NCBI GenBank assembly: GCA_964631145.1
Contig: CAZVXT010000001.1
Location: forward strand, 1-50,968
Source of the DNA: an uncultured Candidatus Saccharibacteria bacterium
Lineage (GTDB): Bacteria; Patescibacteriota; Doudnabacteria; UBA920
DNA: 50,968 nt
Reading direction: 5' to 3'
Shown here: piece after piece, positions 3,001-41,489 of the stretch
Layout of the letters: each line of letters starts with the position of its first letter
How positions within the stretch are numbered: position 1 is the stretch's first letter
The notes under the pieces: generated by a model
Told to the model about the DNA's origin: nothing
What the model saw: the letters and a program-made list of their open reading frames with translations, nothing else
Database searches by the model: none
Program-made: the position numbers and the translations under genes

Positions 3001-6000
3001 TATATGAATTGCCTGAGCCTGATGAGCTATAGAAATTAGTACCAAAAAAGTTTGTAGCATAACCGTTAGTACCACCAAATGTACCTACATCATTGGCATA
3101 GAATAAGGTTGTACCTCCATTTTTTACTTCAAATCTATATACTGGCGTACTCGTCCCTATCCCCACATTACCACTCGCAACCACTAAGGCAGCTGGGTTA
3201 GTTATGGTTACGTTAGAACCTGCAGTAGGAGGTCCTGCAATGTATAAGGTTGATGCTGAGGTGTAAGTTGTTGCAGAGGAAGCTGCAAAGGTTGGAATAC
3301 CTAAACTATTAGCAACAGCGTTGGCTACAGTTCCAGTTGAAGTGGTGTCTGTATAGGTTGCAGCTGCGCCTTGGAGGGCAATACCGTTTACTCCCCAGGC
3401 AGAGGCAGAGCGGTTGCCTCCAAGCGTCAAAAGACCAGCAGGATTGCTTACTCCTATACCTACATTGCCGGATCCAGATAAAATTCTCATTTTCTCACCA
3501 GCTGAACCATAGCCTGTATAAAAAATCAAATCTACCTGATCGAGCCCGGAAGCATTTGTTTTACCTTCTATTCCAGCATATGCACTTGAATACGAAGGAT
3601 TGTAAAATTTAATTATTCCCTGACTAGTACTTACAGCATTACCGCCAAATAATCCAATAGATGATGAAACAGATAACTTTTCTCCGGGACTCGTCGTCCC
3701 AATCCCCACATTACCGCCTTGCTGAATACGCATATACTCAGCTGCTGTACCACTAAAACCACCGATCGCCCCAAAAGCTAAATCAGATATATTGTTTCCT
3801 CTAGTAATACTTGCTACATAATTTCCATCTCCAACATTTGAGTCAGCACCACGAGGTACTAAACGCAATGAGGCGTACGAATTCACTATGGCACTGTCGT
3901 TACTAATAACTAATCCGGAAGTGTCCGTATTTAAATCTATCGCTGAATTATTTACATTATTAGAAATTTCGGTTCTAGCATAAGGACTACTCGCACCAAT
4001 ACCAACATTGCCGCTAGTCTCCAAAATAAATTGTGGGGCTATTGAGGTGCTTGGTGTAAAAATATTACCAGCTGTTAGATTTAAAGAATGCGTAGTCTGA
4101 ATCCAGTTTTTGGATCCATCGTCACCAAAGAAAAATTTATTGTTTGGATCGTTAAATCTAAAAATATTCCAATTCTGTGTTCCAGAAGTAACTCCAGAAA
4201 AATTAGTTATTAACTGAGATGGATTCGCCCATTGCTGTGCAGATAAATTTCCAGTTGAGTCATAAAAACCAAGTGCAGCAGTTGCGTTACTTTTAATTGA
4301 CAAAGATTCTACTGGAGAAGAATTACCTATCCCCACATTGCCATTAAAGTACGCCACTCCACCTGTAGGTGTAGTAGAACTTCCAACCGAAAGATTACCA
4401 AGCGTATATATATTGTCAGTGTTGGTTGTCGGAGAAAGGGTTGTACCACTGCGTGACCAGTAACCAATGGTCCCACTAATTGGCGCTGTGGTAGTAAGAG
4501 CAGAAAACGCGTCAGTATACACAACGCTATTGGTAGCCAAGCCAGAAAATGTAGCAGAAGCAGAGAAGGTGGGATTAGTACCAAACACTAATGCCCCAGT
4601 ACCAGTCTCATCGGTTACTGCAGTCAACAAATTTACACTGGAAGGTGCAGTTAAGAATGTCACAACTCCGCTGGCCAATCCAGATACACCAGTGCTAATT
4701 GGAAGTCCCGTACCATTAGTAAGTGTTACCGCTGATGGTATTCCTAAATTAGGAGTAACAAGTACCGGGCTATTAGCCAAAACCAGATTACCAGTTCCCG
4801 TTTCATCAGAGATCACAGAAGCAATCCCTGATGAGGTTGTAACTGCCGAAAACGGTGATGCACCATTTCCCATAAGCAATCCTGTTAAGCTTGTCGCACC
4901 ACTACCGCCATTACCAACCCCTAATGTACCCGATACTTCTGCGGTGGACAGATCTACGGCCGTAGTCGTAGAACCAGATCCTGTAAAGAATGCGGAAGTT
5001 ACTAAATCCGAAACATAATTATCAGTTAAGGCTGTACCATTCCATACACCAGTGGTTATAGTACCGACTGTTATAATAGATGATTGTCCAGTATATGTAG
5101 CTGCTATGTCGATAGTTGGATTACCGGCAATACCACTTCCATTAGTTACGGCAATACGGTCGTTGGTACCGGTTAGTGTGCGTGCAGTGCTGACGTTATT
5201 TGCTGTACGCACCACTAAGCCATTGCTCCCTGGATCGCCCAATGAAGTCAAAGATTGCTGGTCAAGTTGATATCTCGTTGCGCCGATAGTAATGTACAAA
5301 TGAGAACCATCATACTCAACAGCACCATCTTCAGGTATTGCAAGATTAGCGCCTGCAGATATTTTTAGTGGAGCTGTTCCAGCCGCTACAGTCCCAGCTG
5401 CAATCGTTATTCGTGCTGAAGGGGTTATTGTACCAACACCCAAAGAATTACTTCCGGTATCCCAAAATAAATTATTATTGCTTTGTGCCAAGTTACCAGC
5501 ACCATCTACAAACAAGATAGAACCAGCAGTACCGCTAGTAACCGAACTACCAATCGCCCCTACTCCGCATGATGCACCTGCTACACCTACAACACCGCTA
5601 TTATCAACTTGCAAACACTTGGTACCATTTCCAGCTAAACCACTTAAGGTTAAATTATTTATAGTAGCCGTTCCAGTTATACTTGCTGTGTTTGTGTAAA
5701 ATCTTGTTGAAGACAAATCAGTTGCAGAAAACAAACTTACACCAGAAACATTTGTAGAAGGACTTGCCGGAATGTAAGTAATCACCGCAGGGGCTGTTGC
5801 TGTCTGATTATTATTTGATTGTCCAACTGACTTACTAATTAAATCTCCAAACCATCCAGCTTCAATCACCTGTTGAATGTTTCTCATTACCAATCTATCA
5901 ATCTCTCTTTCGTCGTACTTACCTAGATCAAATGTATTACGTTGAGCATATCCCTTAACCATGTTACTAGTCGTGAGACTACTATTATCAACCATGCTCA

Positions 6001-6355
6001 ACACACGACCACTGACTACTTGAGCTGGTGCAACAGCTTCACCTCTTGGCATGAAAACCAAAGGCTTAGAGTGTTCATTTATATCAACCGACTTAAATAA
6101 GTTTGCTACCCCAGGAAATTCTGGTACATGCAAATTATTTAACCCAAGTCCTGTTTTTACAACTGCAATTTTATCGTTAACAATATTTAAAACAGTTTGC
6201 TTTTGTTCAATGTTATAAAAATATGAAGTAGTAATTCCATAAAACGCCAAAGCTATAATCCAGGCAAACAAATATTTAGTCTTAAGATAACCGTGCTTCT
6301 TAATCTGCAATTGCTTTTCGTTAGCAATTAAATTGATCTCTAATTTAGGACGCAT
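1..6355 (-). CDS. Giant (>2118 aa, runs off the left edge) membrane-anchored, tail-fibre-like repeat protein with recurring GNVGIG motifs
   Basis: Not in the ORF track. Manual translation from ATG at 6355 (MRPKLEINLIANEKQLQIKKHGYLKTKYLFAWIIALAFYGITTSYFY...) stays in one frame down to position 2; frame checked at 5464, 4459, 2704 and 4. GGAGGTGG lies upstream. The sequence is Gly/Ser/Thr/Asn/Ala-rich with repeated GNVGIG(T) motifs and an N-terminal hydrophobic helix. Confidence 0.9.
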   Translation of the reverse strand, partial: MRPKLEINLIANEKQLQIKKHGYLKTKYLFAWIIALAFYGITTSYFYNIEQKQTVLNIVNDKIAVVKTGLGLNNLHVPEFPGVANLFKSVDINEHSKPLVFMPRGEAVAPAQVVSGRVLSMVDNSSLTTSNMVKGYAQRNTFDLGKYDEREIDRLVMRNIQQVIEAGWFGDLISKSVGQSNNNQTATAPAVITYIPASPSTNVSGVSLFSATDLSSTRFYTNTASITGTATINNLTLSGLAGNGTKCLQVDNSGVVGVAGASCGVGAIGSSVTSGTAGSILFVDGAGNLAQSNNNLFWDTGSNSLGVGTITPSARITIAAGTVAAGTAPLKISAGANLAIPEDGAVEYDGSHLYITIGATRYQLDQQSLTSLGDPGSNGLVVRTANNVSTARTLTGTNDRIAVTNGSGIAGNPTIDIAATYTGQSSIITVGTITTGVWNGTALTDNYVSDLVTSAFFTGSGSTTTAVDLSTAEVSGTLGVGNGGSGATSLTGLLMGNGASPFSAVTTSSGIASVISDETGTGNLVLANSPVLVTPNLGIPSAVTLTNGTGLPISTGVSGLASGVVTFLTAPSSVNLLTAVTDETGTGALVFGTNPTFSASATFSGLATNSVVYTDAFSALTTTAPISGTIGYWSRSGTTLSPTTNTDNIYTLGNLSVGSSTTPTGGVAYFNGNVGIGNSSPVESLSIKSNATAALGFYDSTGNLSAQQWANPSQLITNFSGVTSGTQNWNIFRFNDPNNKFFFGDDGSKNWIQTTHSLNLTAGNIFTPSTSIAPQFILETSGNVGIGASSPYARTEISNNVNNSAIDLNTDTSGLVISNDSAIVNSYASLRLVPRGADSNVGDGNYVASITRGNNISDLAFGAIGGFSGTAAEYMRIQQGGNVGIGTTSPGEKLSVSSSIGLFGGNAVSTSQGIIKFYNPSYSSAYAGIEGKTNASGLDQVDLIFYTGYGSAGEKMRILSGSGNVGIGVSNPAGLLTLGGNRSASAWGVNGIALQGAAATYTDTTSTGTVANAVANSLGIPTFAASSATTYTSASTLYIAGPPTAGSNVTITNPAALVVASGNVGIGTSTPVYRFEVKNGGTTLFYANDVGTFGGTNGYATNFFGTNFYSSSGSGNSYIAMGTGVNKNIKFNTNNTDVGIFDSAGNFGIGDTSPAALLTVGNGDLFQVNSSGAIAAATGITSSGTINFSGLSASSAVYTDASKNLTTTAPTSGSLGYWSRSGTALQPATSTDNIVIPANGAASTPSVALTGTWFTGGDATTTKPQLLIEPTGTTSNNWSTGGTAIGVNAVSGFAGDLLKLEVNGSSKFRIDQNGNQYDANTILFNNAVSGANAAWIGWTNRSKLYSDADGNIRLSNNAGTGFSRLQFGGTTSSFPSLQVSGANLNLSLADNSAYTNLALGQLYASDQIRANSSGTTKLYLDGINNREVLNSNAIITWKDNTDALAGSADVALARSAAGILKVSDASTGYGGLTANSLLLTSNRSSSAWGVNGIALQGAAAIYTDTSSSGTVANAVANSLGIPTFAASSATTYTSASTLYIAGPPTAGSNVTITNPAALVVASGNVGIGTSTPVSALDVLGSINTSGNITLTAGSGYLRFGSSGGRSAIFSSADGVIDLYNNAHTDFSRLNFGGTTSSFPAIKRSGTTLQARLADDSGYASFDAGSLLVGGANINTGGTLSNVAYLDQLNIFSQQNTFNSSIAIANTVSSELVFSGANSANIYQSTSGQSLYINSNTGSMYLGANGSGSQHITILSSGNVGIGNTSPNARLDILDTTLAGSGALTGSVLNIAQTWSTSGTPTAVKLNVTDNASNANSVLMDLQVGGVSKFSVLKSGYVTSQSVGAFSGLSLNATGALSWSTHSVVNSPVDGQITLMNAAQNNFTSLNFGGTSSSFPAIKRNGSALDLRLADDSGYAGLTSNYNIISGNRSASAWGVNGIALQGAAATYTDTSSTGTVANAVANSLGIPTFAASSATTYTSASTLYIAGPPTAGSNVTITNPAALVVASGNVGIGTSSPALKLQVLGSSGYPATSGTTQTGVMRLITTSPGTQVLDMGVNNGTGTAWLQATSSTDLSAKWAISLNPNGGNVGIGDTSPASLLTVGSGDLFQVNSSGAIAA
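311..577 (-). repeat. 267-nt intragenic repeat, copy 1 (89 aa: NRSASAWGVNGIALQGAAATYTDT...ALVVASGNVGIGTS)
   Basis: Direct sequence comparison. 311-499 is identical to 3149-3337. Confidence 0.95.
1646..1912 (-). repeat. 267-nt intragenic repeat, copy 2
   Basis: Near-identical to copies 1 and 3 with scattered, mostly synonymous differences. In frame (offset 1335 nt). Confidence 0.95.
3149..3415 (-). repeat. 267-nt intragenic repeat, copy 3
   Basis: Offset 2838 nt from copy 1 (in frame). The first ~189 nt on the + strand are identical to copy 1. Confidence 0.95.
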
Positions 6356-6599
6356 AGCCACCTCCCAATCCCTCAAACTTCTTCAAAAACTTTCTATGCT
6401 TTATTTCCTGTTGTTTAGAATATGCCAAAACAGCTTGACGTGTAGTCAACCAATCGCGAGAAATCTTTAACGCTGGAAGTCTTCCTTTACGAGCTAGTAA
6501 AGATAAGTATTCTGAACTATAAGGAGTAAGCTTCGAAGCGTCAGAGATAGAAATAAGTTGTCCTGAAGCGAGTAATATCTGCTTCTCTTTTTCTGACAT
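6345..6599 (-). CDS. Small excisionase/MerR-like helix-turn-helix protein
   Basis: ISISDASKLTPYSSEYLSLLARKGRLPALKISRDWLTT matches the HTH_17/Xis-like pattern. Overlaps the start of the giant ORF by 11 nt. Confidence 0.75.
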   Translation of the reverse strand: MSEKEKQILLASGQLISISDASKLTPYSSEYLSLLARKGRLPALKISRDWLTTRQAVLAYSKQQEIKHRKFLKKFEGLGGGYAS

Positions 6600-6799: not shown

Positions 6800-7180
6800 C
6801 TACTTAGCCTTTGCTTTATTAGGTCCAATTTTAGACTTAGTAGAATTTTTGCGAATTCTAGGTGCGTTATCACGAAGCTTTCTGACATAATAAAGTTTGC
6901 TTTGTGTGACAACACTATCTTTAACTATTTCTAGTTTTGCAATGTTTGGAGAATGTAAAGGATAAATACGCTCTACCCCTACTCCATTACTAATTTTACG
7001 AACAGTAAATGTAGCGTTTACTCCATTACCACCCTTGCGAGCGATAACCAAACCTTCAAAGATCTGAATACGTTCTTTACCGGCTTCTTTAATACGGTTA
7101 TGAACTTTAACAGTAAATCCAGTCTTAAATTCTGGCAATTCTCTGACTTGTTCGGTTTTTAAATTTTTTACAATTGGCAT
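6800..7180 (-). CDS. rplS: 50S ribosomal protein L19
   Basis: GFTVKVHNRIKEAGKERIQIFEGLVIARKG...TFTVRKISNGVGVERIYPLHSP. Confidence 0.98.
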   Translation of the reverse strand: MPIVKNLKTEQVRELPEFKTGFTVKVHNRIKEAGKERIQIFEGLVIARKGGNGVNATFTVRKISNGVGVERIYPLHSPNIAKLEIVKDSVVTQSKLYYVRKLRDNAPRIRKNSTKSKIGPNKAKAK

Positions 7181-7182
7181 AA

Positions 7183-8151
7183 TTATAATAAATTAAGTTT
7201 ATGACTATTTAAGCTTACTAGCAATTCTTTAATATCATTAGGTAATTTACTTTCAACTTTTACCGACTGTCCATCAGGTAAAGGTATAAAGATCGAGTAA
7301 GCATGTAAAGCTTGTCTAGAAAAACCTAATTTTAAAGATTTTTTTCCTCCATATAAAGTGTCTCCTACTAATGGAAACCCTAAGGAAGAAAAATGAACGC
7401 GAATCTGATGCGTTCTACCTGTGTGTAATTTTACCTTAATTAGAGTATATTCGTCAAGTTTTGCAAAATCACCCTTTTTAGCATCTCCATAGGTTAATCT
7501 TTCTAGCACCTGATATTCCGTTAAAGACGCTTTTTGGAGCACCATATCTTGTGTATCTGTTGTATATTTACGAAAGTCCTTTTTGCTTTTACCTAAAGGA
7601 CTGTCTATTAATCCATGCTCATTTGGCAATCTACCACAGACCAAAGCAATATATTCTTTTTTAACTTTTTTCTCCTTCCAAGCCGTCTTCAAGTAATCAT
7701 ACATATCTGAAGTTAAAGCTATAGCTATAACACCACTTGTATCTTTATCTAGTCGATGTACAATACCACTTCTGCCCTCTTCCCCAACCAGATGGATATC
7801 CTTAAAATGATACAACAAACCTTGAGCCAAAGAATTGCCCTTAAACCCAGCACCAGGGTGCACTGGCAATCCAGCAGGCTTATCCAATATTAACAATCCA
7901 TGATTATTGTATAAAGTTTTCAAAGGAATATTGACGGGTCCTGGAATTTCTTCTTTGCTAGGTCTATAAGAAATAGAATCATCTTTTCGCACAACAAATT
8001 TTGGCTCAAGTTTATTTTCGTTATTTACTTTTACTAAACCAGCTTCTATATCTCGCTGAATTTTACTGCGTGACAGATCTGGCAATTGCTCTGCCAAAAA
8101 TTTATCCAGTCTTAATTTTAATTGTTCAACTTTAAAAGTTTTGATTGACAT
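7183..8151 (-). CDS. rluD: RluA/RluD family pseudouridine synthase with S4 domain
   Basis: N-terminal RLDKFLAE...SRSKIQ; catalytic HRLDKDTSG; GRTHQIRVH; GDTLYG. Confidence 0.92.
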   Translation of the reverse strand: MSIKTFKVEQLKLRLDKFLAEQLPDLSRSKIQRDIEAGLVKVNNENKLEPKFVVRKDDSISYRPSKEEIPGPVNIPLKTLYNNHGLLILDKPAGLPVHPGAGFKGNSLAQGLLYHFKDIHLVGEEGRSGIVHRLDKDTSGVIAIALTSDMYDYLKTAWKEKKVKKEYIALVCGRLPNEHGLIDSPLGKSKKDFRKYTTDTQDMVLQKASLTEYQVLERLTYGDAKKGDFAKLDEYTLIKVKLHTGRTHQIRVHFSSLGFPLVGDTLYGGKKSLKLGFSRQALHAYSIFIPLPDGQSVKVESKLPNDIKELLVSLNSHKLNLL

Positions 8152-9185: not shown

Positions 9186-9512
9186 TTATAAGCTGAAATC
9201 CATATCGCCGGAAGCGTCATCATTGTGACTTGCGCCGTGTTCACGACGTGGTCCACGATGAGAACCTTCTGGTTCATGGATCTTCAAGTTTACGCGAGCT
9301 TTATGCTTAGCACCAACCACACGAAGAAGTGTGCGAAGAGCTTTAGCAGTTTGACCCATACGACCAATTACTTGACCCATATCAGCTGGATTAATATGAA
9401 GAGTAATAAGTACTCCCATTTCATCAACTGAACGTTCTGTTTTTACATCACCTGGGTTGTCGACTAGAGCCTTAACGATATATTCTACAAACTCTTGATC
9501 TTGTTCCATCAT
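9186..9512 (-). CDS. khpA: KH-domain RNA-binding protein KhpA
   Basis: EFVEYIVKALVDNP...DMGQVIGRMGQTAKALRTLL (GxxG KH loop); position next to trmD. Confidence 0.93.
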   Translation of the reverse strand: MMEQDQEFVEYIVKALVDNPGDVKTERSVDEMGVLITLHINPADMGQVIGRMGQTAKALRTLLRVVGAKHKARVNLKIHEPEGSHRGPRREHGASHNDDASGDMDFSL

Positions 9513-25007: not shown

Positions 25008-25192
25008 AATTCCTCCTTAAGAATCAAACTATATAATAATACGCAATATTGGTCGAAGTCAATACAAAACAAAACCGCCATGTTTTAGCGGTTTTGTTTG
25101 CTTTGTGTTTGTTTGGTTACTCGGATACTATCCTATTTAAGATTAGCACACCGAAATACATACACAAACCAAGTTATCAACAATTTTATTAA

Positions 25193-29314: not shown

Positions 29315-30157
29315 CTACTTTATTATAAATGATAATATTGCCTGAACAACCGCATAAGCCATAACCACTATAACCAAGCCAATCAAAGCATTTGTAAAGG
29401 TTTTTCTACCGCTAGCAGACTGAGCATCATTACCTCTAGAAGTTATATATAAGTAACCTCCGTAAATAAGCATTAACACAGCAATTATACCCGACAACCC
29501 TAAAGCTATATTTATAATTCTTAAGACTATAGCACCTATGGATCCAGACTTCACCAGACTATTATTATTAGAATTATTAAAAGGATTATCAGGAACGCAT
29601 AGCAAACCCGCTTCATGAAAACCACTCTCACAATTTCCTTGAGTACCATTGTTAGAAGTAGATCCATTATTAGTGGATCCATTTGAGCCATTATTGCTAC
29701 CATTTCCGTTGTTGCCCGTACCGTTACCATTACCAGGACTACCACCGTTATTTCCATTATTTGGGACAGTTCCGTATGGCTTTAACTGATCAATTTTAAA
29801 TGGACCTTTTTTTTGTTTAATCTTCACCGAGTCTGTGCTAACTATAAAATCACAACCCGCATTTAAACCACTCGCATCGTACTTAGCTTCTGTTAAAGCG
29901 ACAGAGGATTCTGTACTTCCTGATTTAATAAATTCGTAAACACAAATTGCACCACCATATTTATTAATACTTTTAGAAACAGTATCATACCCAGAAGGAC
30001 AAGAGCCTGACCACAAAACACCAACATCCAAATTATCTCCATTAAGACAAAAATCATAATCTGTTTTAATACCAGATTGTGCCTTTATAGTTATAAAAGG
30101 CATTATTAATAAAGTAATAACTATTAAGAAAGATAATGATCTAATAAAAATTTTCAT
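29315..30157 (-). CDS. VirB2/TrbC-like (T4SS pilin family) protein with Cys-rich N-terminal domain and Asn/Gly linker
   Basis: C-terminal IINIAL..SGIIAVLMLIYGGYLYITSRGN...NALIGLVIV two-helix motif. Confidence 0.8.
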   Translation of the reverse strand: MKIFIRSLSFLIVITLLIMPFITIKAQSGIKTDYDFCLNGDNLDVGVLWSGSCPSGYDTVSKSINKYGGAICVYEFIKSGSTESSVALTEAKYDASGLNAGCDFIVSTDSVKIKQKKGPFKIDQLKPYGTVPNNGNNGGSPGNGNGTGNNGNGSNNGSNGSTNNGSTSNNGTQGNCESGFHEAGLLCVPDNPFNNSNNNSLVKSGSIGAIVLRIINIALGLSGIIAVLMLIYGGYLYITSRGNDAQSASGRKTFTNALIGLVIVVMAYAVVQAILSFIIK

Positions 30158-30160
30158 AAT

Positions 30161-30976
30161 CTATTTTCCTATTATAAAGTTATAAACAACCTGAACGAGG
30201 GCGTAAGACATGACAATAATAACTAATCCTATAACTGCATTACTTAATGTTTTTACCGCTTTACCTACTTGAGCGTCATTACCACGTGCTGTTATATATA
30301 AATACCCCCCTATTATAAACATAATTACCGCAATAATACCTGCAAACAACAATGCTATATCGATAATTCGTTTTGCGATATCAGAAATTGATGTGGTTCT
30401 TACCAAACTATTAGAATTATTAGAACTAAATGGGTTATCTGGTACACAAAAAGGTCCTAACTTATGAAATCCTGATTCGCAATCACCTTTGGAGTAAGTA
30501 CTGGTAGTTGAATTTTTTCCGCCTGAGGGGATAGCTATAGGAGAAGTATTAGGTTTGCCATTTGTGGGAGTAGAAGGAGTAGTTTGATTATTAGTAGGAC
30601 TGGAAGGATTGTTTGGACTAGAAGGCAAACTAGATGGATTATATTTAGGCAAACTAGAAACTTTAATAGGACCTATATACATAGCCCCGGATTCGGTATA
30701 ACAACCATTGCCATTTACAGGTTCACTTATAGAACCTTGAGGTTTTGTATAATAAACACAAATAGTTTTTAAGCCGGATGGAAGGGGAATAGGAATTATT
30801 CCTGACGGACATACTTTAGTAGACGAGATAGATTGAGTCGCGTTCTTTGAATCAACGCATACATAACTAGAAGCAGTGGTATTAGTACCTTCTCCTATAG
30901 CTAAGACAAAATGGCTAGGTAAAACTACCATAGCCATTAAAAATATAAATAAAATTTTTGAAAAAATATTTTTCAT
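30161..30976 (-). CDS. VirB2/TrbC-like pilin with Cys-rich N-terminal domain and Pro/Ser/Thr linker
   Basis: Same C-terminal motif; shares CESGFH..G..CVPDNPF with 29315-30157. Confidence 0.8.
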   Translation of the reverse strand: MKNIFSKILFIFLMAMVVLPSHFVLAIGEGTNTTASSYVCVDSKNATQSISSTKVCPSGIIPIPLPSGLKTICVYYTKPQGSISEPVNGNGCYTESGAMYIGPIKVSSLPKYNPSSLPSSPNNPSSPTNNQTTPSTPTNGKPNTSPIAIPSGGKNSTTSTYSKGDCESGFHKLGPFCVPDNPFSSNNSNSLVRTTSISDIAKRIIDIALLFAGIIAVIMFIIGGYLYITARGNDAQVGKAVKTLSNAVIGLVIIVMSYALVQVVYNFIIGK

Positions 30977-30981
30977 TAGAA

Positions 30982-31401
30982 TTAACTTTTTCCAACTAAG
31001 AAATTGTATACCACTTGCACTATCAAGTAAGATAAAACAATCATGGCAAGTCCTATTAAAGCATTCCTTGCAGTCTTTAATCCGGTATTTGCCTTAGAAT
31101 CACTACCTGCGGAAGTTATATACATATAACCACCGACAATAATAAATATAACTGCTATCATTGCTGCTAGATACAAAGCCCAGTCAATTATTTTCTTTAT
31201 AAAATCTTGTGGGTTGGTGGTATCAATTGCAGTATTAGGAAAAGAACCAGAAATACTACTTAAACCATCTTGTACTTGATTGCTTCCACCAGTAGAAGTT
31301 TGATTTGTAGTGGGAGTGGTTCTATTTGTTGTTTGTGCAAAAACATAGTTTGGTGCAAACAAAACAAAGACCAAGCTCAAAACGAATAATATTTTTTTCA
31401 T
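30982..31401 (-). CDS. VirB2/TrbC-like pilin
   Basis: Signal peptide; IIDWALYLAAMIAVIFIIVGGYMYITSAG...NALIGL. Confidence 0.82.
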   Translation of the reverse strand: MKKILFVLSLVFVLFAPNYVFAQTTNRTTPTTNQTSTGGSNQVQDGLSSISGSFPNTAIDTTNPQDFIKKIIDWALYLAAMIAVIFIIVGGYMYITSAGSDSKANTGLKTARNALIGLAMIVLSYLIVQVVYNFLVGKS

Positions 31402-31483
31402 TTATTTTATAGTTACAATTCTGGAGTTAAAATATCTTTTAATCCCAGAGCTGTACCGCACAAAATGTGCGGACAAGCCAATG

Positions 31484-31933
31484 TTAGGTTCCAAATGCTC
31501 CAGTTCCTTGTCCAGAGACAAAGCGGTAAACAATTTGAACAACAACATAAGATAAAACGATGATTACAATACCAATTAATGCATTACGAATTGCAGTCAT
31601 ACCAGTTTTAGCAGAAGCATCGTTTCCTGCAGAGAAGATATATCTGAATCCACCGTAAATTAATACGATAACAGCTCCCAAGAATGCTATTGCTAATGCC
31701 CAGTTAATTATCAATCTAAAGATAGAAGTTAAACTACCTTCGCTACATCTAATACCTGTTTCACCAGGACAGCTGTTAGCAAAATTATTAATTAATTGTG
31801 CGTGAGTAAATTGTGGTATAACTATTGGAGAAAGAGCCATAATAGTTACCAAAGCTAACTGTACAACATTTAGCCAATTTAAGTTTTTTAATATTTGTTT
31901 CAAGTTTATCACCGCCTTTCTAGTTTTTGTCAT
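31484..31933 (-). CDS. VirB2/TrbC-like pilin
   Basis: IINWALAIAFLGAVIVLIYGGFRYIFSAGN...NALIGI. Confidence 0.82.
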   Translation of the reverse strand: MTKTRKAVINLKQILKNLNWLNVVQLALVTIMALSPIVIPQFTHAQLINNFANSCPGETGIRCSEGSLTSIFRLIINWALAIAFLGAVIVLIYGGFRYIFSAGNDASAKTGMTAIRNALIGIVIIVLSYVVVQIVYRFVSGQGTGAFGT

Positions 31934-31996
31934 ATTAACGAATAGTCGTTAATTAATATTTATTCCTGTAAATATTTTACAATACTTTTAGAGAAA

Positions 31997-32398
31997 TTAA
32001 AACAACTTGTTGTCAACAACGTAATTTACAACTACTTGAACTAATATTACTGCCATAGCTGTAACTATTACACCAGCTAGTGCATATTGAATAATTTTTC
32101 TACCCTGAGATGCTTGTGCGGGGTTGCTTCCAGCAGTCATATATATATAACCTCCATAAATTACGGCAATTACAGCAATAACCCCAATAAACCAATACAT
32201 TAAATTAATAATTTTATTATAAACTTGACCTTCTGTACAATAAGCTGGTAACTGCGAAGTAATATCTTGCCCAGCCGATCCACCTTCGTTAATAAATTTA
32301 GCCTTTAAATCATCACACTCGTTGGCATAAACACTATTTGGGGCAAAAACAAATAGTGAAGCAATAATCAAAATCAAACTTAAAAATATTTTTTTCAT
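31997..32398 (-). CDS. VirB2/TrbC-like pilin
   Basis: IINLMYWFIGVIAVIAVIYGGYIYMTAGSNP...YALAGV. Confidence 0.82.
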   Translation of the reverse strand: MKKIFLSLILIIASLFVFAPNSVYANECDDLKAKFINEGGSAGQDITSQLPAYCTEGQVYNKIINLMYWFIGVIAVIAVIYGGYIYMTAGSNPAQASQGRKIIQYALAGVIVTAMAVILVQVVVNYVVDNKLF

Positions 32399-32400
32399 AT

Positions 32401-32841
32401 TTAAACCAAATTATAAATTATCCCGACAATAGCATACGACATCAAAGCGACAACTAGCCCAATTAAGGACCATGTAATTCTTGATTTAGCAGTTTTTACA
32501 ACCGCATCACTACCCTGACTTGTAACCAACTGGATTCCCGAATATACAATCATAATAGTTGCCACCATTGCTATTAATAAAAACAAAATTCTTATTACTC
32601 TATTAATTAACTGCGGAATACTTGTTGCTTTCACAGGGCTATCAATAGTCGGTAATACATCTTTATCACCTGCATAACCTGTGGGTTGCGTAGAAGCTTT
32701 TGGAGTTATAGTAGATGTTTCGTTGTTTGTAGTTTTAACCTCTGGAGACTTATTTGATGGATCTACAGCAAATGAAGTTAAAGGAACTAAAAGTAATAAT
32801 ATAAATGAGAAAGTTATAATACTTATTATAATTTTTTTCAT
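32401..32841 (-). CDS. VirB2/TrbC-like pilin
   Basis: VIRILFLLIAMVATIMIVYSGIQLVTSQG...AKSRITWSLIGL. Confidence 0.82.
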   Translation of the reverse strand: MKKIIISIITFSFILLLLVPLTSFAVDPSNKSPEVKTTNNETSTITPKASTQPTGYAGDKDVLPTIDSPVKATSIPQLINRVIRILFLLIAMVATIMIVYSGIQLVTSQGSDAVVKTAKSRITWSLIGLVVALMSYAIVGIIYNLV

Positions 32842-32842
32842 A

Positions 32843-33328
32843 CTAATTATCAGAATTAATATATTGTTTTGGATCAGTAAAGATTAAAGCTCCGTTTTTT
32901 ACACCCAAATTTAATGACCCTGTAAAAGCCGCATTGACCAACACAAATGCTGTTGCCACAATGGCAAGCCCAATAACTGCTCCGGTCAATCTTTGCTTAG
33001 CATCTGTTAACTGCCCTTGACCCTGAGAAGTAGTCATCAAAATCCCTGCGTATACAATAAATGCAACCGCCAAAAACCCAGCCATCCCAATCATGTAATT
33101 AATAATCATGATTGTAATTTTAAATAAATGAGATACATTACAAGGATTATTAACATCATTTCCACAAATCACAAAACCATTTTTTGGATCTCGTGTAGTT
33201 GTCTGTGAAGCTTGAGCCAACAAAGTATTATTATCAGATACAGCTAGTGCGTAATAAGGAATGATAAAAAATATGATTGCGAATGCTACCAAAAATATCT
33301 TTAAAATATTTATTTTATTTATATACAT
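32843..33328 (-). CDS. VirB2/TrbC-like pilin
   Basis: CGNDVNNPC; IINYMIGMAGFLAVAFIVYAGILMTTSQG...AKQRLTGAVIGL. Confidence 0.82.
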   Translation of the reverse strand: MYINKINILKIFLVAFAIIFFIIPYYALAVSDNNTLLAQASQTTTRDPKNGFVICGNDVNNPCNVSHLFKITIMIINYMIGMAGFLAVAFIVYAGILMTTSQGQGQLTDAKQRLTGAVIGLAIVATAFVLVNAAFTGSLNLGVKNGALIFTDPKQYINSDN

Positions 33329-34240
33329 TTAACCATTAATTAATCTTTGAATTATAGCTACTATACTAAATGAAAATAGACTTAAAAGTAATCCTGCAAC
33401 AGCGTAAATAACAGTTAACCTAGCTTTTGCTACAGCAGACGAATTACCACTATTAAGAACCATCATAAAACCACCATACACTATAAATAGTACAGCCAGC
33501 ATCCCGGCGACAACCAACATAATCTGGACCACCCTAGCAATACCTTCAGAAATATTATCAAATTCAAAAGCATTAAAAAAAGTGCCTACACTACTATCAT
33601 ACATACCGGCAGTACTTTTTACTCCAAGTCCACCATCTATACTCGCCCCAGCCTGTCCTTGCACACCCCCAGAAACAGAACCAGTTGAGGTGTTTCCTGA
33701 TGATGTACCAGTCGATGTACCAGTTGTATTAGATCCATTAGAAGTTGTTGAAATTGACGAAGCTGTACCAAAATTTACTTGCATATTAGCCGCACTTTTG
33801 TCGTTGATTAAAATTGTATAGACATATGTAGCGGTTGCCGCACTACCCAAATCTTTACTATAAGATGCATTATTAGTAGTAATATTTGCATTATTAATTA
33901 AGGTAAAGCTGCTAGTAATTTTCTTGCCAGAAAACTGACTACCGGCAACATGTATAGTACTTCCCGAGCAATTCTTGGTAATAACTCTTAATATATACTT
34001 CCCTTCTGTAGGAGTATTAACGGTTGTGGTGGTGCCAGACTTAGATGAAGCTTTTACAGTTTTTCCATCCTTTAGCAAAACAGGTGTTACATCACATTTT
34101 TGGAAATTAAACACCGAGCTTCCACCATCTATATCTGCTCCAGTTGTAATTTCACCCTGAGCAAAAGACAAATTAGCAAAAGATAAAAATATTATAAAAA
34201 TAATATAGGAAGATATTAATTTTAATAAATTATTTTTCAT
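33329..34240 (-). CDS. VirB2/TrbC-like pilin with beta-rich N-terminal domain and Thr/Ser/Gly linker
   Basis: C-terminal VVQIMLVVAGMLAVLFIVYGGFMMVLNSGN...AKARLTVIYAVAGL. Confidence 0.8.
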   Translation of the reverse strand: MKNNLLKLISSYIIFIIFLSFANLSFAQGEITTGADIDGGSSVFNFQKCDVTPVLLKDGKTVKASSKSGTTTTVNTPTEGKYILRVITKNCSGSTIHVAGSQFSGKKITSSFTLINNANITTNNASYSKDLGSAATATYVYTILINDKSAANMQVNFGTASSISTTSNGSNTTGTSTGTSSGNTSTGSVSGGVQGQAGASIDGGLGVKSTAGMYDSSVGTFFNAFEFDNISEGIARVVQIMLVVAGMLAVLFIVYGGFMMVLNSGNSSAVAKARLTVIYAVAGLLLSLFSFSIVAIIQRLING

Positions 34241-38454: not shown

Positions 38455-38760
38455 CTAAATATCAGATTGCGCCCATGGCAACACCCTAAGTCTTTCTTCT
38501 CTAATAGGGTTACCATCTTGGTCTAAACCATAAGACCCATCTTCAATCTTCGATAAAGCCAAATCGATTTTTTCTAAATCTGATTTCATTTGAGAAATAA
38601 CATCCTGATTAACTTCATCCATTTGTAATTCTGTAGCTGCTTCATCTAGATCATCGCCAACTTCTGTATGTGCACTTAATCCAGACAAGTCTTCTTGTAA
38701 TTTGTTTTTAGTTTCTAAAAGCCTTGCTTTCATTTCATCTAAAAATTCTTGTGAGAACAT
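38455..38760 (-). CDS. DksA/TraR-family protein lacking all four zinc-finger cysteines
   Basis: Coiled coil with DxxDxA tip (DDLDEA); ALSKIEDGSYGLDQDGNPIREERLRVLPWA, where CxxC is expected. Confidence 0.85.
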   Translation of the reverse strand: MFSQEFLDEMKARLLETKNKLQEDLSGLSAHTEVGDDLDEAATELQMDEVNQDVISQMKSDLEKIDLALSKIEDGSYGLDQDGNPIREERLRVLPWAQSDI

Positions 38761-38814
38761 AATTTGTGGAATTAATTTATAGGATTATTATATCAATATT
38801 TTTACAAACAAAAA

Positions 38815-39311
38815 AGCGCCCCTTCTCGGGCCCCAATTTATATATAATGAACGAGCCGGAAGTAGGCGCTATCTGACAAATTTCTCAGATAGTCGCCGCT
38901 CTAGCTGCAGGATCCCAAACTTTATGAGACCCTAAACCTAGAGCAGTCGCTACCAACATTGAATTAGTCAGTTTCTAGCATAATGCTAGAGCGTCTGTAT
39001 CCCAAACGATATCAAACTGCACTCCAAACTTCTCTTGTGGTCTTTCGACCTAAAACTTTTGTTCTATTTTTTTTGTTTTTGTTTTTGAAAAATTTTTTGT
39101 CGGTATTAAAGGACACCGAAGAACCTACATTTGTTTTTGTTTTTTTAGTCAGCTTTGTTTGGTAAAGCTATAACGAGAAGTTTAAAGGAAAGCTACGCTC
39201 TATAATACACTTTGTAAAACAAAGTCTCTAGAAATTACAGCGCAGGTTACCTTTGTTCAGCAATCGTTTGAGATTTTTATTTTTATTTCAAAGAACTAAT
39301 CAACTTGTAGT
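38815..39311 (-). ncRNA. Candidate large structured non-coding RNA (unassigned)
   Basis: Promoter TTGACT-17-TATCAT at 39346-39318; no ORF of 60 aa or more on this strand; many hairpins and long-range helices; GC hairpin plus U-tract at the 3' end. Confidence 0.55.
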
Positions 39312-39317
39312 ATATAT

Positions 39318-39346
39318 ATGATAACAGAATTTTTACTAAAAGTCAA
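39318..39346 (-). promoter_or_regulatory. Promoter TTGACT-17-TATCAT driving the ORF-less structured region
   Basis: Direct reading of the minus strand. Confidence 0.7.
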
Positions 39347-41489
39347 TATCATTTTGCAAAACTTTTACATTTTTTCTTAAACTCAATCTAAAAGTTAACT
39401 TAGACATTAAAATATTTAACAAAATTTGATCCAAATCTGTAAATTCATTTCTATATTTTTTATATACACAACTTTGGTAATAATTATTAACCAATTGTAT
39501 ATCCTTATTTAGCATTAAAAGCTGATCGCAATCAATTTGATACTTCTGTTTGACTATAAAATCGCTAGTTGCTAACAAAATACAACTATTAAATAATGAG
39601 AAGTTTCTAAATATTTTATTACCACTGCCCGAATAATCTTGCGCCAACACATGAGAAAATTGTTTTAGCTGTATATAATACTTTTTATAGAAATCCTTAA
39701 CCGATATAGCGCTATCAAAGATAACAGCTGTACTTAAAATATTATTTGTTAAATAATTTGCAAGATTATCATATGAAGATATGCTAATTGAATTATTTTC
39801 TAAATTTTTAGATTCCACAGCAATCTCTGTATCTAATCCTAGACGTTCGTTAATAAATAAAAGTGAATCGAAATTTAAAATATTTGTTGAATAAGCAGTA
39901 CTCTCAAATTTGAACCATAAATTTTTTAGAGTTAAGGCAATATCTAATGGTTGAGAGTAGATAAATATATTATATTTTTCTAAACTCGCCCATTTCAAAT
40001 AACCCTCTCTAAAATTAAACATTTCAGATAGATCAGCTTTCAATTTATTTAATATTTCTGGTAATAGCTTATTTGATAAAGAATCTAGTTTAACCAGAAA
40101 GTTGTTTACACTGTTCTGTAGCTTTAAATACTCATAGCTATCATCTTTATAAAAATCGTTTAGCGGGTACACTGCATACTGAGCTGTGATATTTTTGATT
40201 AAAGATATATGGAACAAGCCAAACAACAGATCTGCCTGAGCCAATAGATTTGCCAATAACCCTGCATCTTCCTCGGACAAACTCTCTTCTTCTCCAAAAG
40301 ACTTTTTTAAATTAAACAATAACCCCAACCAAGAAAGTCTCTTTTCTAATTTTGAAGTTACATAGTGTTCAAATTGAGTTATGTTGGAAATGATTAATCT
40401 ATAAAATTTAAAATCATCATTAGATGAAGATAGTCCCAGGAGTGTTTGATAGCTCATACATAAACTATCGGAGTTATAGTTTTCTTCACCACCAGTAATA
40501 AAACTTTTAAACTGCCCGCCGAAAAATGAAAGGTTTAAATCTAAGATTGTTTTACATTGCCAATTTGTTTCCTGCCAAACTAAAATTTTTAAAACAAATC
40601 TTAGTTCTTCTGAAGTTTGGGCATTGTAAAAAAATGAGTCGAATAAATTTTTGTTAAATAAATCAGAAGACCTAAAAACACCTTCTGCTGTTCCTGCTTT
40701 CCATAGATCTAAAACCTGTCTGTCTGAGGATACAGCTAAAACGTATTTACTTGATTTATTATTTAAAGAATTTGCCAACCTAAATTCGTGCTGAAAATTA
40801 TTTGCATCATATATTACCTGTTTATCAACACTCAAATCAACTTCTTCAGATTCAACTATTTCGTTTTTTAAAGAGTCTTGAAAAGTTTTTATATTTTTAA
40901 AGCTATAATTTTCTTCAAATAAATGTTGCCATGAAAAAATTCCTCTGCGCATTACGTTGCGCAAATTTTGTTTAAGTTCTAAACTGTAACTTGAAAAAAT
41001 ATTTAATAAATCGTTTAGAAGCAACGCGGTAGTAACAGCATCAGATAAAGCCCTATGACTTCCTGTATGTTTGATATCAAAATAGTGAGCTAGATTTTCT
41101 AAATTATAACTATGATGTGTGGGTAACAAAAATTGCACCAACTCTAACGTATCTATTACATTACCTGAAAGCTTTACACCTACACTTTCTAAAAATTTTA
41201 CATCTAAGGTTGGGTTATGTGCTAATAAAGTTTTGTCTGATAATTTTGCTGACAAAAATTCTACAAAATCTGTAATCTTAGGTGCTGCGTCTAACTCTTC
41301 CTGAGTGATGCCGGTAAGACCTAAGATTTTTTCATGAACTTCAATATCTGGTTGAAAAACCTGTTGCCATTTTTCTCCCAAAACCACACCTTCTTCAGTT
41401 ACATCAAAAAATACAAATCCAATTTCTAAGATCTGGTCTTTTTCTGGTTCGAAGCCAGTAAACTCTAAATCAATGCTGCAATATTTCAT
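39336..41489 (-). CDS. DEDDh 3'-5' exonuclease (DnaQ-like) fused to a degenerate DinG-like helicase region
   Basis: SIDLEFTG, LAHNPTLD, HRALSDA. The C-terminal ~500 aa show no Walker A or DEAH motif. Confidence 0.8.
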   Translation of the reverse strand: MKYCSIDLEFTGFEPEKDQILEIGFVFFDVTEEGVVLGEKWQQVFQPDIEVHEKILGLTGITQEELDAAPKITDFVEFLSAKLSDKTLLAHNPTLDVKFLESVGVKLSGNVIDTLELVQFLLPTHHSYNLENLAHYFDIKHTGSHRALSDAVTTALLLNDLLNIFSSYSLELKQNLRNVMRRGIFSWQHLFEENYSFKNIKTFQDSLKNEIVESEEVDLSVDKQVIYDANNFQHEFRLANSLNNKSSKYVLAVSSDRQVLDLWKAGTAEGVFRSSDLFNKNLFDSFFYNAQTSEELRFVLKILVWQETNWQCKTILDLNLSFFGGQFKSFITGGEENYNSDSLCMSYQTLLGLSSSNDDFKFYRLIISNITQFEHYVTSKLEKRLSWLGLLFNLKKSFGEEESLSEEDAGLLANLLAQADLLFGLFHISLIKNITAQYAVYPLNDFYKDDSYEYLKLQNSVNNFLVKLDSLSNKLLPEILNKLKADLSEMFNFREGYLKWASLEKYNIFIYSQPLDIALTLKNLWFKFESTAYSTNILNFDSLLFINERLGLDTEIAVESKNLENNSISISSYDNLANYLTNNILSTAVIFDSAISVKDFYKKYYIQLKQFSHVLAQDYSGSGNKIFRNFSLFNSCILLATSDFIVKQKYQIDCDQLLMLNKDIQLVNNYYQSCVYKKYRNEFTDLDQILLNILMSKLTFRLSLRKNVKVLQNDIDF

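Follow-up and report, generated by a model that had tools for sequence, protein, structure and literature searches.

The window analysed here, a stretch of 50,968 nucleotides, carries on its minus strand, at 38810-39311, the gene for a previously undescribed folded non-coding RNA of Candidatus Doudnabacteria (Patescibacteria/CPR). The gene lies between a DEDDh/DinG-like exonuclease gene and a DksA-like gene, an order kept in all loci that have the RNA, and synteny extends across the whole 10-kb neighbourhood (FtsK-RodZ-RecA-exonuclease-RNA-DksA-ComM), so that gene context is uninformative about what the RNA does. Its promoter (39346-39318, minus strand; -35 TTGACT, 17-nt spacer, TG-extended -10 TATCAT) overlaps the 3' end of the DEDDh/DinG-like ORF and is the strong promoter that an earlier, sequence-only reading of this DNA had described. 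Among 69 homologous loci, 66 have a TTGACA-17-TAnnnT promoter at this position, 58 of these with the extended -10 TG. At the other end lies an intrinsic terminator (38870-38810; -23 kcal/mol), in which an AGCGCC...GGCGC stem, 90% paired with 4 compensatory pairs, is followed by a U-run; the run is found after the stem in 67/69 loci. From these signals we infer transcription of 39311-38810, giving a primary transcript of ~500 nt whose ends are deduced from promoter and terminator. Over the RNA gene the G+C content rises to 0.38 from ~0.25-0.30.

That this interval encodes a real, conserved ncRNA family is close to certain. The RNA is ~490 nt long in the window and 420-560 nt in homologues, and its profile match (39304-38809, 312 bits) is the sole copy that the profile search returned within the window. 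Members were found at 74 genome loci of Doudnabacteria, on 53 metagenome contigs and on one further contig, each locus having a single copy. In 72 of 79 genome loci nhmmer placed the RNA directly 3' of the DEDDh/DinG-like gene, a profile search added two more (L037 and L053), and 53 of 56 metagenome loci carry it; the most divergent locus with the RNA is L140. Identity to the window copy is 53-78% for the RNA and 25-46% for the neighbouring exonuclease protein. The minus-strand transcript (~39311-38810) folds at -150 kcal/mol (z = -8.0), a value equalled by none of 100 shuffles. As had been suggested, there is no conserved ORF: the only two, of 34 and 60 amino acids, are there by chance. The sequence features expected of an independent ncRNA gene are present, namely a covariation-backed structure, its own promoter and terminator, the lack of a conserved ORF and cross-species conservation. 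Searches outside Doudnabacteria used exact patterns or protein synteny, by which more distant relatives can be missed. A pattern scan of metagenomes returned the same family in the same context only, plus three chance matches, one of which (L117) falls inside an ORF; viral contigs gave two chance matches with the first pattern and none with the second, and blastn against phage records found no copy. A protein search from the most divergent exonuclease led to three contigs, one with a further family member and two with unrelated genomic contexts. Literature searches returned no description of this Doudnabacteria RNA.

The secondary structure rests on covariation among 68 homologues (alignment A2). 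The 75 proposed pairs reach 91.9% pairing, compared with 78.9% for shuffles, and compensatory changes are numerous; the covariation score of these pairs is 0.42 versus 0.19 when shuffled, none of 500 shuffles scores as high, and slid controls reach at most 0.12. G-U pairs are frequent (UG 32 and GU 15 at columns 698-816), which fixes the strand. Towards the 5' end, hairpin H3 (39251-39187) pairs GGUAACCUGCGC (39251-39240) with GCGUAGCUUUCC (39198-39187) through 10 pairs, 86.6% paired and 7 of them compensatory, below a variable apex that spans 12-100 nt among relatives; the consensus of the 5' strand is AAGGAAAUCUG. Directly adjoining H3 is the long-range helix H4, formed by UUUAAACUUCUC (39186-39175) and GAGAAGUUUGGA (39034-39023), in which 97.9% of pairs form and 7/10 show compensatory changes; this helix was already seen in the sequence-only reading, as an inner helix at 39175-39183/39026-39034. 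H4 encloses H5, H5b, H6 and ~60-100 nt of A-rich strand, and the enclosed region is 49% A. The AGCUU/AAGCU stem of H5 (39169-39151) is 100% paired, with 3/5 pairs compensatory, and is flanked by near-invariant GUCAU on its 5' side and GNNUG on its 3' side. H6 (39050-39039; GGUC-GAAA-GACC) has an invariant GG/CC base below a variable upper stem and loop, its stems differing in length and sequence across the alignment. Both hairpins had been proposed before, and both are backed by covariation. The hairpin placed at 39099-39120, here H5b, stands in part: it lies just 3' of a conserved AUGWAGG, folds in the window (-7.7 kcal/mol) and has, by eye, equivalents of different sequence in relatives, but it is variable and missing in a few members.

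On the 3' side of H4 follow, in order, H10, H7, H8, H9 and the terminator. H10 (39017-38993) pairs GUUUGA (39017-39012) with ACAGAC (38998-38993), a stem that is 97.5% paired in the 68 sequences and 98% in a set of 107, with 3 compensatory pairs. The next hairpin, H7 (38990-38974; UCUAGCA-UUA-UGCUAGA), had likewise been anticipated; per-sequence folds give -8 to -17 kcal/mol with the sequence differing each time, and almost every folded homologue has a hairpin here (22 of 23 listed). Next comes the long helix H8 (38954-38888), in which GGUAGCGACUGCUCUAG pairs with CUAGAGCGGCGACUAUC around a 4x4 internal loop: 15 pairs, 98.2% paired, 14 compensatory. Its apical stem H8b (38933-38926/38916-38909) has 8 pairs, 96.1% paired and 8/8 compensatory, and is absent from several relatives. 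The short H9 (38889-38872; UCUGA-GAAAUUUG-UCAGA) is a fold of the window sequence with partial covariation (columns 818-831, CG 36 and UA 17). Where a three-way junction had been drawn at 38850-38958, three hairpins follow one another instead: H8 (bearing H8b), H9 and that of the terminator. When all alignment columns were scanned against each other for covariation, in search of long-range partners for the conserved single-stranded elements, only the known helices and noise came up. One further candidate helix, H2 (AAACUGAAC/GUGCAGUUU), scored 0.794 against 0.787 shuffled and overlaps the well-supported H10, and was dropped.

The core of the RNA is pseudoknotted. The H5 loop, inside H4, pairs with the H10 loop, outside H4 (consensus CCAAUC with GAUUGG; in the window, CCAAAC at 39162-39157 with GUUUGG at 39007-39002, minus strand). 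This kiss is 96% paired with 5/6 pairs compensatory, whereas slid controls are at most 49% paired, and it shows 19 doubly changed cells versus 2.0 +/- 1.3 in shuffles, although covariation is blind to whether the two loops meet within one molecule or between two. If intramolecular, it would lock the core of the RNA together. A pseudoknot had been expected here, and one exists, but not through the helices first proposed. Those crossing helices (39263-39270/39003-39010 and 39195-39202/38987-38994), together with a closing helix at 39294-39303/38959-38969, can form in the window sequence; across the 68 homologues they are 42.9% paired versus 43.3% when shuffled. For the closing helix, 5'/3' duplex energies computed sequence by sequence also give a mean z of ~0. 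A hairpin drawn at 39209-39225 proves to be the window-specific tip of the variable H3 apex. Two sequences once read as echoes of RNase P conserved regions fare no better: AUACAGA is the 3' strand of H10 and varies, its commonest form being UUCAGAC, and AAACGAUUGCUG is not conserved.

Several conserved sequence elements lie outside the helices. Near the 5' end, between a variable leader and a variable insertion site, a single-stranded motif AGYWCYUUGAAAAY (39297-39284; AGUUCUUUGAAAUA in the window) has near-invariant columns G17, C20, T22, T23, A25 and A27 (alignment A2); neither the covariation scan nor duplex energies gave it a covarying partner. Within H4, the A-tract AAAACAAAAA (39143-39134) is almost invariant and predicted to be single-stranded, with 7 positions identical in 68/68 sequences (A170-A173, A176, A177 and A179) and the remaining three (C174, A175 and A178) at least 90% conserved; 67-68 of the 68 contain the k-mers CAAAAA and AAAACA. 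A second A-rich element, CAAAA (39086-39082), has invariant columns A229-A231 and at least 90% conservation at A228. It is predicted to be single-stranded in the subgroup of the window, and in the other subgroup it apparently sits, by eye, in a hairpin loop, UCAAAAU. Around these elements runs a low-complexity A-rich strand of variable length, ~60-130 nt or about a fifth of the RNA. The two A-elements never vary, and they may instead be engaged in tertiary contacts or base-paired to a U-rich strand. Beside the covarying helices sit near-invariant junction nucleotides (GUCAUAG, GCUG and GRAGUGCAG). Two other ideas about these regions were tried and set aside: pairing of the A-tract with the terminator U-tail, where the G position in the tail is not conserved, and a start codon or mini-ORF at AUGWAGG, whose AUG varies among members and whose W makes the next codon either a stop or Lys.

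The RNA is not recognisable as RNase P, tmRNA, SRP, 6S, OLE, GOLLD, ROOL, raiA or HEARO RNA. With gathering scores as the cut-off, no Rfam family matches the RNA, either in the window or in 15 homologous loci, and searches at E <= 10 (the window RNA and the RNA of a relative, L035) and at E <= 1 (the whole window) gave tRNAs and noise only. The suggestion of an undescribed ncRNA class is supported in that the family is conserved and covarying, has its own promoter and terminator and is without an Rfam match. Neither SRP nor 6S RNA matches at E <= 10, and at the place of a would-be SRP symmetric loop H8b pairs canonically, with covariation. With tmRNA it shares stability, a pseudoknot and an A-rich, poorly structured middle, but it lacks a tRNA-like acceptor/T-arm domain and ends in an intrinsic terminator. 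ARAGORN finds two tRNAs and no tmRNA in the window; the Rfam tmRNA match in L035 is local, over the A-rich region, and reaches 5.8 bits. A tag reading frame ending at the conserved GCAGUUUGA, followed by eye in one frame, is closed by UGA in many members, those carrying GUUUGAAG. There is also a likeness to the large orphan RNAs OLE, ROOL, GOLLD and the raiA motif, with which it shares large size, an intricate fold, a lineage-restricted distribution, strong covariation and highly conserved junction nucleotides, and loop-loop contacts are a structural theme common to that group. Unlike them, the present RNA is confined to Doudnabacteria and has long A-rich single strands, no copy in the viral contigs and phage records searched and no homology that we could find; the OLE, ROOL, GOLLD, raiA and HEARO covariance models gave no Rfam match.

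Whether the RNA is RNase P RNA deserves separate consideration. In RNase P RNA, CR-I is GAGGAAAGUCC and CR-V is ACAGAANNCGGCUUA, and CAUAG follows P5; even the minimal Pyrobaculum-type RNAs retain CR-I, CR-IV and CR-V, and type B molecules have a loop-loop contact, L5.1-L15.1. The Doudnabacteria RNA resembles RNase P RNA (RF00010/RF00011) in several ways: it is stable, present in single copy and a few hundred nucleotides long, it has variable 'expansion' sites as well as one long-range helix, and its pseudoknot joins an element within the domain closed by a helix to a strand beyond that domain. A housekeeping RNA could well have this size, copy number, strong promoter, pseudoknotted core and conservation throughout the clade, and one might picture an RNase P RNA that has diverged in Doudnabacteria until it is no longer recognisable. 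The consensus AAGGAAAUCUG is loosely like CR-I, GUCAUAG is like the CAUAG after P5, and no rnpB was found in the 51-kb window, which is part of a 654-kb contig, or in the relatives' flanks of 4-10 kb or less. RNase P RNAs of CPR bacteria can moreover drop below Rfam thresholds and lose helices (PMC8172020). Yet the diverged CPR RNAs of that study, which covered no Doudnabacteria, are still detected by RF00010, whereas no RNase P model is among the matches reported at E <= 10 in 511-nt and 751-nt searches of two family members, the former listing matches as weak as 5.8 bits.

The structure also speaks against RNase P. Covariation assigns AAGGAAAUCUG to the local hairpin H3, as its 5' strand, and not to a long-range P4; a P4 formed by CR-I and CR-V lacks both motifs in the 68-sequence consensus, and the P4-like helix proposed earlier is 62.5% paired versus 64.8% shuffled. 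No covariation was seen for a P1-P2-P3 arrangement with P2 crossing P4, the sole supported pseudoknot being the H5-H10 kiss. In place of a specificity domain (P7-P12, with CR-II/CR-III), the interior of H4 holds H6, an A-rich linker with variable hairpins and the conserved A-tracts, and the helix order differs, the 3' strand of H4 preceding any candidate P2 3' strand. The earlier proposal of a highly divergent RNase P-like ribozyme, with helices analogous to P1, P2 and P4, finds neither covariation in those helices nor an Rfam RNase P match, and the analogy drawn from a single sequence was built on non-conserved helices. The RNA is thus very probably not RNase P, and a diverged RNase P RNA is very unlikely.

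Few large, intricately folded bacterial RNAs are known. Those with a worked-out function are mostly ribozymes or the cores of essential ribonucleoproteins, and the orphans OLE, GOLLD, ROOL and raiA are under active study. CPR bacteria are uncultivated and have tiny genomes. That such a lineage keeps a ~490-nt RNA with a near-consensus promoter across the genomes examined argues for an important and abundant RNA, as judged from the sequence. A bolder reading, which we regard as doubtful, sees in it a new class of large structured RNA, universal in a single CPR lineage and acting as a ribozyme or as the RNA subunit of a housekeeping ribonucleoprotein peculiar to that lineage; at the extreme, if true, it would functionally replace a universal RNA (e.g. 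RNase P RNA) through an unrelated architecture. With ~120 sequences, two conserved A-tracts and a secondary structure that covariation supports and that includes a defined kissing loop, the RNA becomes directly testable.

We favour, with about even confidence, a new stable RNA that is specific to its lineage and probably serves as a protein-binding scaffold, with a kissing-loop core that displays the A-tracts. Such an RNA would act in trans: the core would form a rigid scaffold presenting the (AAN)n-like AAAACAAAAA and CAAAA, and the A-rich single strands would bind a protein that recognises such RNA, as a subunit or by sequestering it. KH-domain, S1-like or Hfq-like proteins are candidates, and the window itself encodes KhpA (9186-9512) as one candidate binder, with the DEDDh/DinG-like and DksA-like proteins as others. 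The narrower claim that the A-tracts themselves make it a protein-binding scaffold or sponge is more tentative. Protein-sequestering RNAs offer a precedent, CrcZ/CrcY through A-rich Hfq/Crc sites and CsrB/RsmZ through GGA motifs. As in those RNAs, short A-rich motifs (AAAACAAAAA and CAAAA/UCAAAAU) are apparently displayed in linkers or hairpin loops between stable helices, and AACAAAAACAAAAA fits the (AAN)n pattern; unlike those RNAs, the Doudnabacteria RNA has two strongly conserved A-elements and not many repeats, together with a precisely conserved pseudoknotted core.

Other functions can be weighed against the scaffold. The size of the RNA and its many near-invariant junction nucleotides beside covarying helices would also suit a new ribozyme with those nucleotides as the active site, or a self-assembling 'ornate' RNA like ROOL, GOLLD and OLE, in which the loop-loop pairing is intermolecular and builds homo-oligomers. 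The covariation fits an intermolecular kiss as well as an intramolecular one, and large orphan bacterial RNAs reportedly assemble into homo-oligomeric complexes (PMC12286853). Set against this are the absence of homology to ROOL, GOLLD or OLE, a variable-length A-rich strand that makes up a fifth of the molecule and would be unusual in a compact catalytic core, and a genomic context that hints at no chemistry or substrate, and we regard the idea as unlikely. In an improbable alternative, the RNA would form one ribonucleoprotein with the adjacent DEDDh exonuclease, a clade-specific protein with a degenerate DinG-like C-terminal region, as its RNA partner or its substrate. The RNA lies directly 3' of the exonuclease gene in every locus that has both, the full-length protein family ends at the same clade boundary as the RNA (below ~26% identity, relatives are found through the N-terminal exonuclease domain only), and the C-terminal ~500 residues show no detectable helicase domain. 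But since the whole block from FtsK to ComM is syntenic, adjacency is not specific, the RNA has a promoter and terminator of its own, and the protein evolves fast whereas the RNA is conserved. Least probable of all is a long cis-acting leader or attenuator that would control dksA-like-lspA-comM through its terminator. The RNA is on the same strand as these genes, and only a short spacer (median 66 nt, minimum 39) separates it from the DksA-like start codon, but covariation gives no sign of a conserved anti-terminator pairing, and ~490 nt with a near-perfect consensus promoter is more typical of a stable RNA. The spacer, moreover, holds a -10-like hexamer before the DksA-like gene in 62/64 loci, in the window TGaTATAAT directly after the terminator U-run, and in L037 and L053 a tandem-repeat array, ~500 nt long, lies between the RNA and that gene.

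The RNA of about 490 nt encoded on the minus strand between the exonuclease gene and the dksA-like gene (approximately 39311-38810) is a new family, judged by Rfam 15 and by such literature as can be searched, in which no description of it was found. Of the two proposals in an earlier sequence-only reading, an undescribed ncRNA class is supported and an RNase P-like ribozyme is not; the observation itself is confirmed in part. The 497-nt stretch folds to a minimum energy of -150.4 kcal/mol, against -107.9 ± 5.3 in dinucleotide shuffles (z = -8.0; 0 of 100 as stable), and G+C is 0.37-0.38 across the gene versus 0.24-0.31 in its flanks. As that reading had stated, no ORF accounts for the interval: overlapping frames are short and unconserved.

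An alignment of the 717-aa exonuclease family led to 79 loci from a one-genome-per-species collection, in records labelled Doudnabacteria, Patescibacteria or 'uncultured Saccharibacteria' MAGs. With the window RNA as single query, nhmmer matched 72 of these, directly 3' of the exonuclease gene and on the same strand, with best E-values reaching 1e-71; a profile search added two more (L037 and L053). Three loci without a match stop at a contig edge short of the site. At locus L025, where the downstream sequence is present, neither search found the RNA; no other genome locus with sequence 3' of the exonuclease gene lacks the RNA, the dksA-like gene and comM there. Since the region looks rearranged, that genome may carry the RNA at another place. 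Metagenome contigs, scanned with an exact pattern, contributed 56 loci, and 53 of them have the RNA between the same neighbours. The RNA (317 bits) also adjoins the full-length exonuclease homologue that diverges most among those found, at 27% identity to the L070 query. Homologues are 420-560 nt long and 53-78% identical to the window copy, with one copy per locus and one in the window; viral contigs and phage genomes yielded none.

Covariation analysis was based on 68 aligned RNA sequences, for which RNAalifold predicted 59 pairs, 42 with compensatory changes. A refined model of 75 pairs in 10 helices is 91.9% paired versus 78.9 ± 0.3% in column shuffles, with 690 doubly changed cells versus 202. 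Its covariation score is 0.42 versus 0.19 (0 of 500 shuffles as high) and falls to ≤ 0.12 when partners are slid by 1-3 columns. The minus-strand reading of the RNA follows from its frequent G-U pairs, each of which would turn into an A-C mismatch in the opposite orientation. Supported elements on that strand include the helices H3 (39251-39240 with 39198-39187) and H4 (39186-39175 with 39034-39023), the hairpins H5 (39169-39151) and H6 (39050-39039), and H10 (39017-39012 with 38998-38993; 97.5% paired, three compensatory pairs). Nearly all folded homologues have a hairpin of differing sequence at the site of H7 (38990-38974). Next come H8 (38954-38938 with 38904-38888), which contains an inner stem, H8b, and, 3' of it, H9 and then the terminator, all of them supported. 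Indels are tolerated at four sites (the leader, the H3 apex, the hairpin H5b and the H8 apex); stable structural RNAs have comparable sites that accept insertions. A candidate helix H2 failed against shuffles (0.794 versus 0.787).

Several features proposed from the single sequence hold up, namely the inner helix 39175-39183/39026-39034, which is H4, and the hairpins at 39151-39169 (H5), 39099-39120 (H5b), 39039-39050 (H6) and 38974-38990 (H7). The same test leaves its crossing helices (39263-39270/39003-39010 and 39195-39202/38987-38994) and its closing helix at shuffle level, 42.9% paired across the family versus 43.3%, and its P4-like helix fares no better (62.5% versus 64.8%; 107 sequences). 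Nor is a conserved 5'/3' closing helix supported by per-sequence duplex energies, whose mean z is about 0, although the window itself reaches -2.1, and the supposed three-way junction (~38850-38958) resolves into three hairpins in succession.

The pseudoknot that is conserved lies elsewhere. It joins two hairpin loops of complementary sequence, those of H5 (consensus UCCAAUCU) and H10 (AGAUUGGA); because the H4-closed domain contains H5 but not H10, this kissing contact is a true pseudoknot. Its six core pairs are 96% paired in the 68 sequences, five with compensatory changes, and doubly changed cells number 19 where shuffles give 2.0 ± 1.3 and none of 500 gives as many; with the partners slid, pairing is at most 49%. 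When the set is enlarged by 45 metagenome sequences to 107 distinct ones, every core pair is 93-99% paired; CG is replaced by UA 13 times at one of the pairs, and CG-to-GC changes are also among the exchanges. In the window the contact is itself doubly changed, CCAAAC with GUUUGG, and the discarded helix 39263-39270/39003-39010 competes there for this GUUUGG strand.

Between H5 and H6 runs an interval of 59-128 nt that is 49% A. It carries the almost invariant element AAAACAAAAA (39143-39134, minus strand), with seven positions identical in 68 of 68 sequences and three at least 90% conserved, and a second conserved A-rich element, CAAAA (39086-39082, minus strand), which lies in a linker in the window's subgroup and, by eye, apparently in a hairpin loop, UCAAAAU, in the other. 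Near-invariant strings also mark the junctions: GUCAUAG 5' of H5, GCUG 3' of H5 and GRAGUGCAG between H4 and H10.

That the RNA is a diverged RNase P RNA is very improbable. Searches of 511-751 nt, one reporting down to 5.8 bits, returned no RNase P model at E ≤ 10, and CR-I, CR-V and the specificity domain are missing. The helix order is unlike RNase P's P1-P2-P3-P4...P2'-P4'-P1'. CR-I, CR-IV and CR-V persist in known RNase P RNAs, including those that are most reduced. On the other side, no rnpB was found in the window or in the analysed flanks of relatives, and surveyed CPR RNase P RNAs may score below Rfam thresholds and lose helices; RF00010 still picked those RNAs up with low scores, and conserved features were retained, in a survey that contained no Doudnabacteria (PMC8172020). 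The H3 5' strand (39252-39242, consensus AAGGAAAUCUG) agrees with the CR-I motif GAGGAAAGUCC at 8 of 11 positions, and a U-C mismatch in H3 sits at the position of the bulged U that RNase P P4 has. Because covariation shows a local hairpin, this loose likeness is treated as coincidence. More broadly, the window at gathering score gave only two tRNAs and no other known family, and a 751-nt Rfam search at E ≤ 10 gave noise only. ARAGORN finds no tmRNA in the window, a tRNA-like domain is absent, and in many members a UGA closes the candidate tag frame that was inspected by eye. Rfam gives no match to SRP RNA, 6S RNA, OLE, ROOL, GOLLD, raiA or HEARO.

The RNA is conserved, independently signalled and single-copy, with a core locked by a kissing-loop pseudoknot and almost invariant A-rich strands. 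A promoter-like site (39346-39318, minus strand; TTGACT, 17 nt, TG-extended TATCAT), confirming the strong promoter of the earlier reading, recurs in 66 of 69 homologous loci as TTGACA-17 nt-TAnnnT, at constant spacing to the alignment start (TTGACA exact in 64, extended -10 TG in 58), and the final hairpin is followed by a U-run in 67 of 69. The spacer between the RNA and the DksA-like start codon has a median length of 66 nt; a -10-like hexamer occurs in 62 of 64 of these spacers, though in DNA so rich in AT this is weak evidence. Combined, these signals point to a transcription unit that is independent and probably strongly expressed; a cis-acting leader of dksA-like genes is the least probable reading of all. 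We infer that the RNA would be abundant and act in trans, its rigid core displaying the A-rich elements to a partner, most probably a protein binding single-stranded A-rich RNA. With such a partner it would be a scaffold or sequestering RNA, a role proposed tentatively. A new ribozyme or self-assembling RNA, the kissing contact possibly being intermolecular, seems unlikely, and an RNA partner of the adjacent clade-restricted exonuclease decidedly so: the entire block FtsK-RodZ-RecA-exonuclease-RNA-DksA-like-(LspA)-ComM-NTP-transferase is syntenic, so position is uninformative about specific function.

The upstream 717-aa protein (39336-41489) has an N-terminal DnaQ/DinG-type DEDDh exonuclease domain; no helicase domain was detected in its C-terminal ~500 residues. 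Its nearest relatives are labelled Candidatus Doudnabacteria or Patescibacteria group; full-length relatives extend no further than the clade boundary of the RNA, and remoter matches cover the exonuclease domain only. The downstream 101-aa protein (38455-38760) matches NCBIfam DksA_like below the model cut-off. It retains a DxxDxA-type tip motif, DDLDEA; by eye, cysteines are absent at the position of the C4 zinc finger that DksA normally has. At L037 (~6900-7400) and L053, a tandem-repeat array of ~500 nt, with units containing AAAATCTGCAATCGAGCTGAGACTGGGGACGCCTTCG..., lies between the RNA terminator and the dksA-like gene.

The AT-rich window (G+C ~30%) has gene content typical of Patescibacteria (CPR), including ribosomal proteins L19 and S16, TrmD, KhpA, SMC, RNase III, FtsH, RecA, FtsK and ComM, together with a series of T4SS-pilin paralogues. 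The latter form a tandem array of nine ORFs (29315-34240, minus strand; 133-303 aa), each with a C-terminal T4SS_pilin domain (PF18895), adjoining a tRNA-Leu gene. A weak Rfam Phe_leader match in the intergenic region that separates the RNase III gene from a sigma-70-like gene (25065-25188, minus strand; 34.4 bits, E = 0.05, under the gathering score of 55) is probably noise. An open frame of >2,127 codons without a stop (2-6382, minus strand) extends past the window start and probably encodes a giant protein.
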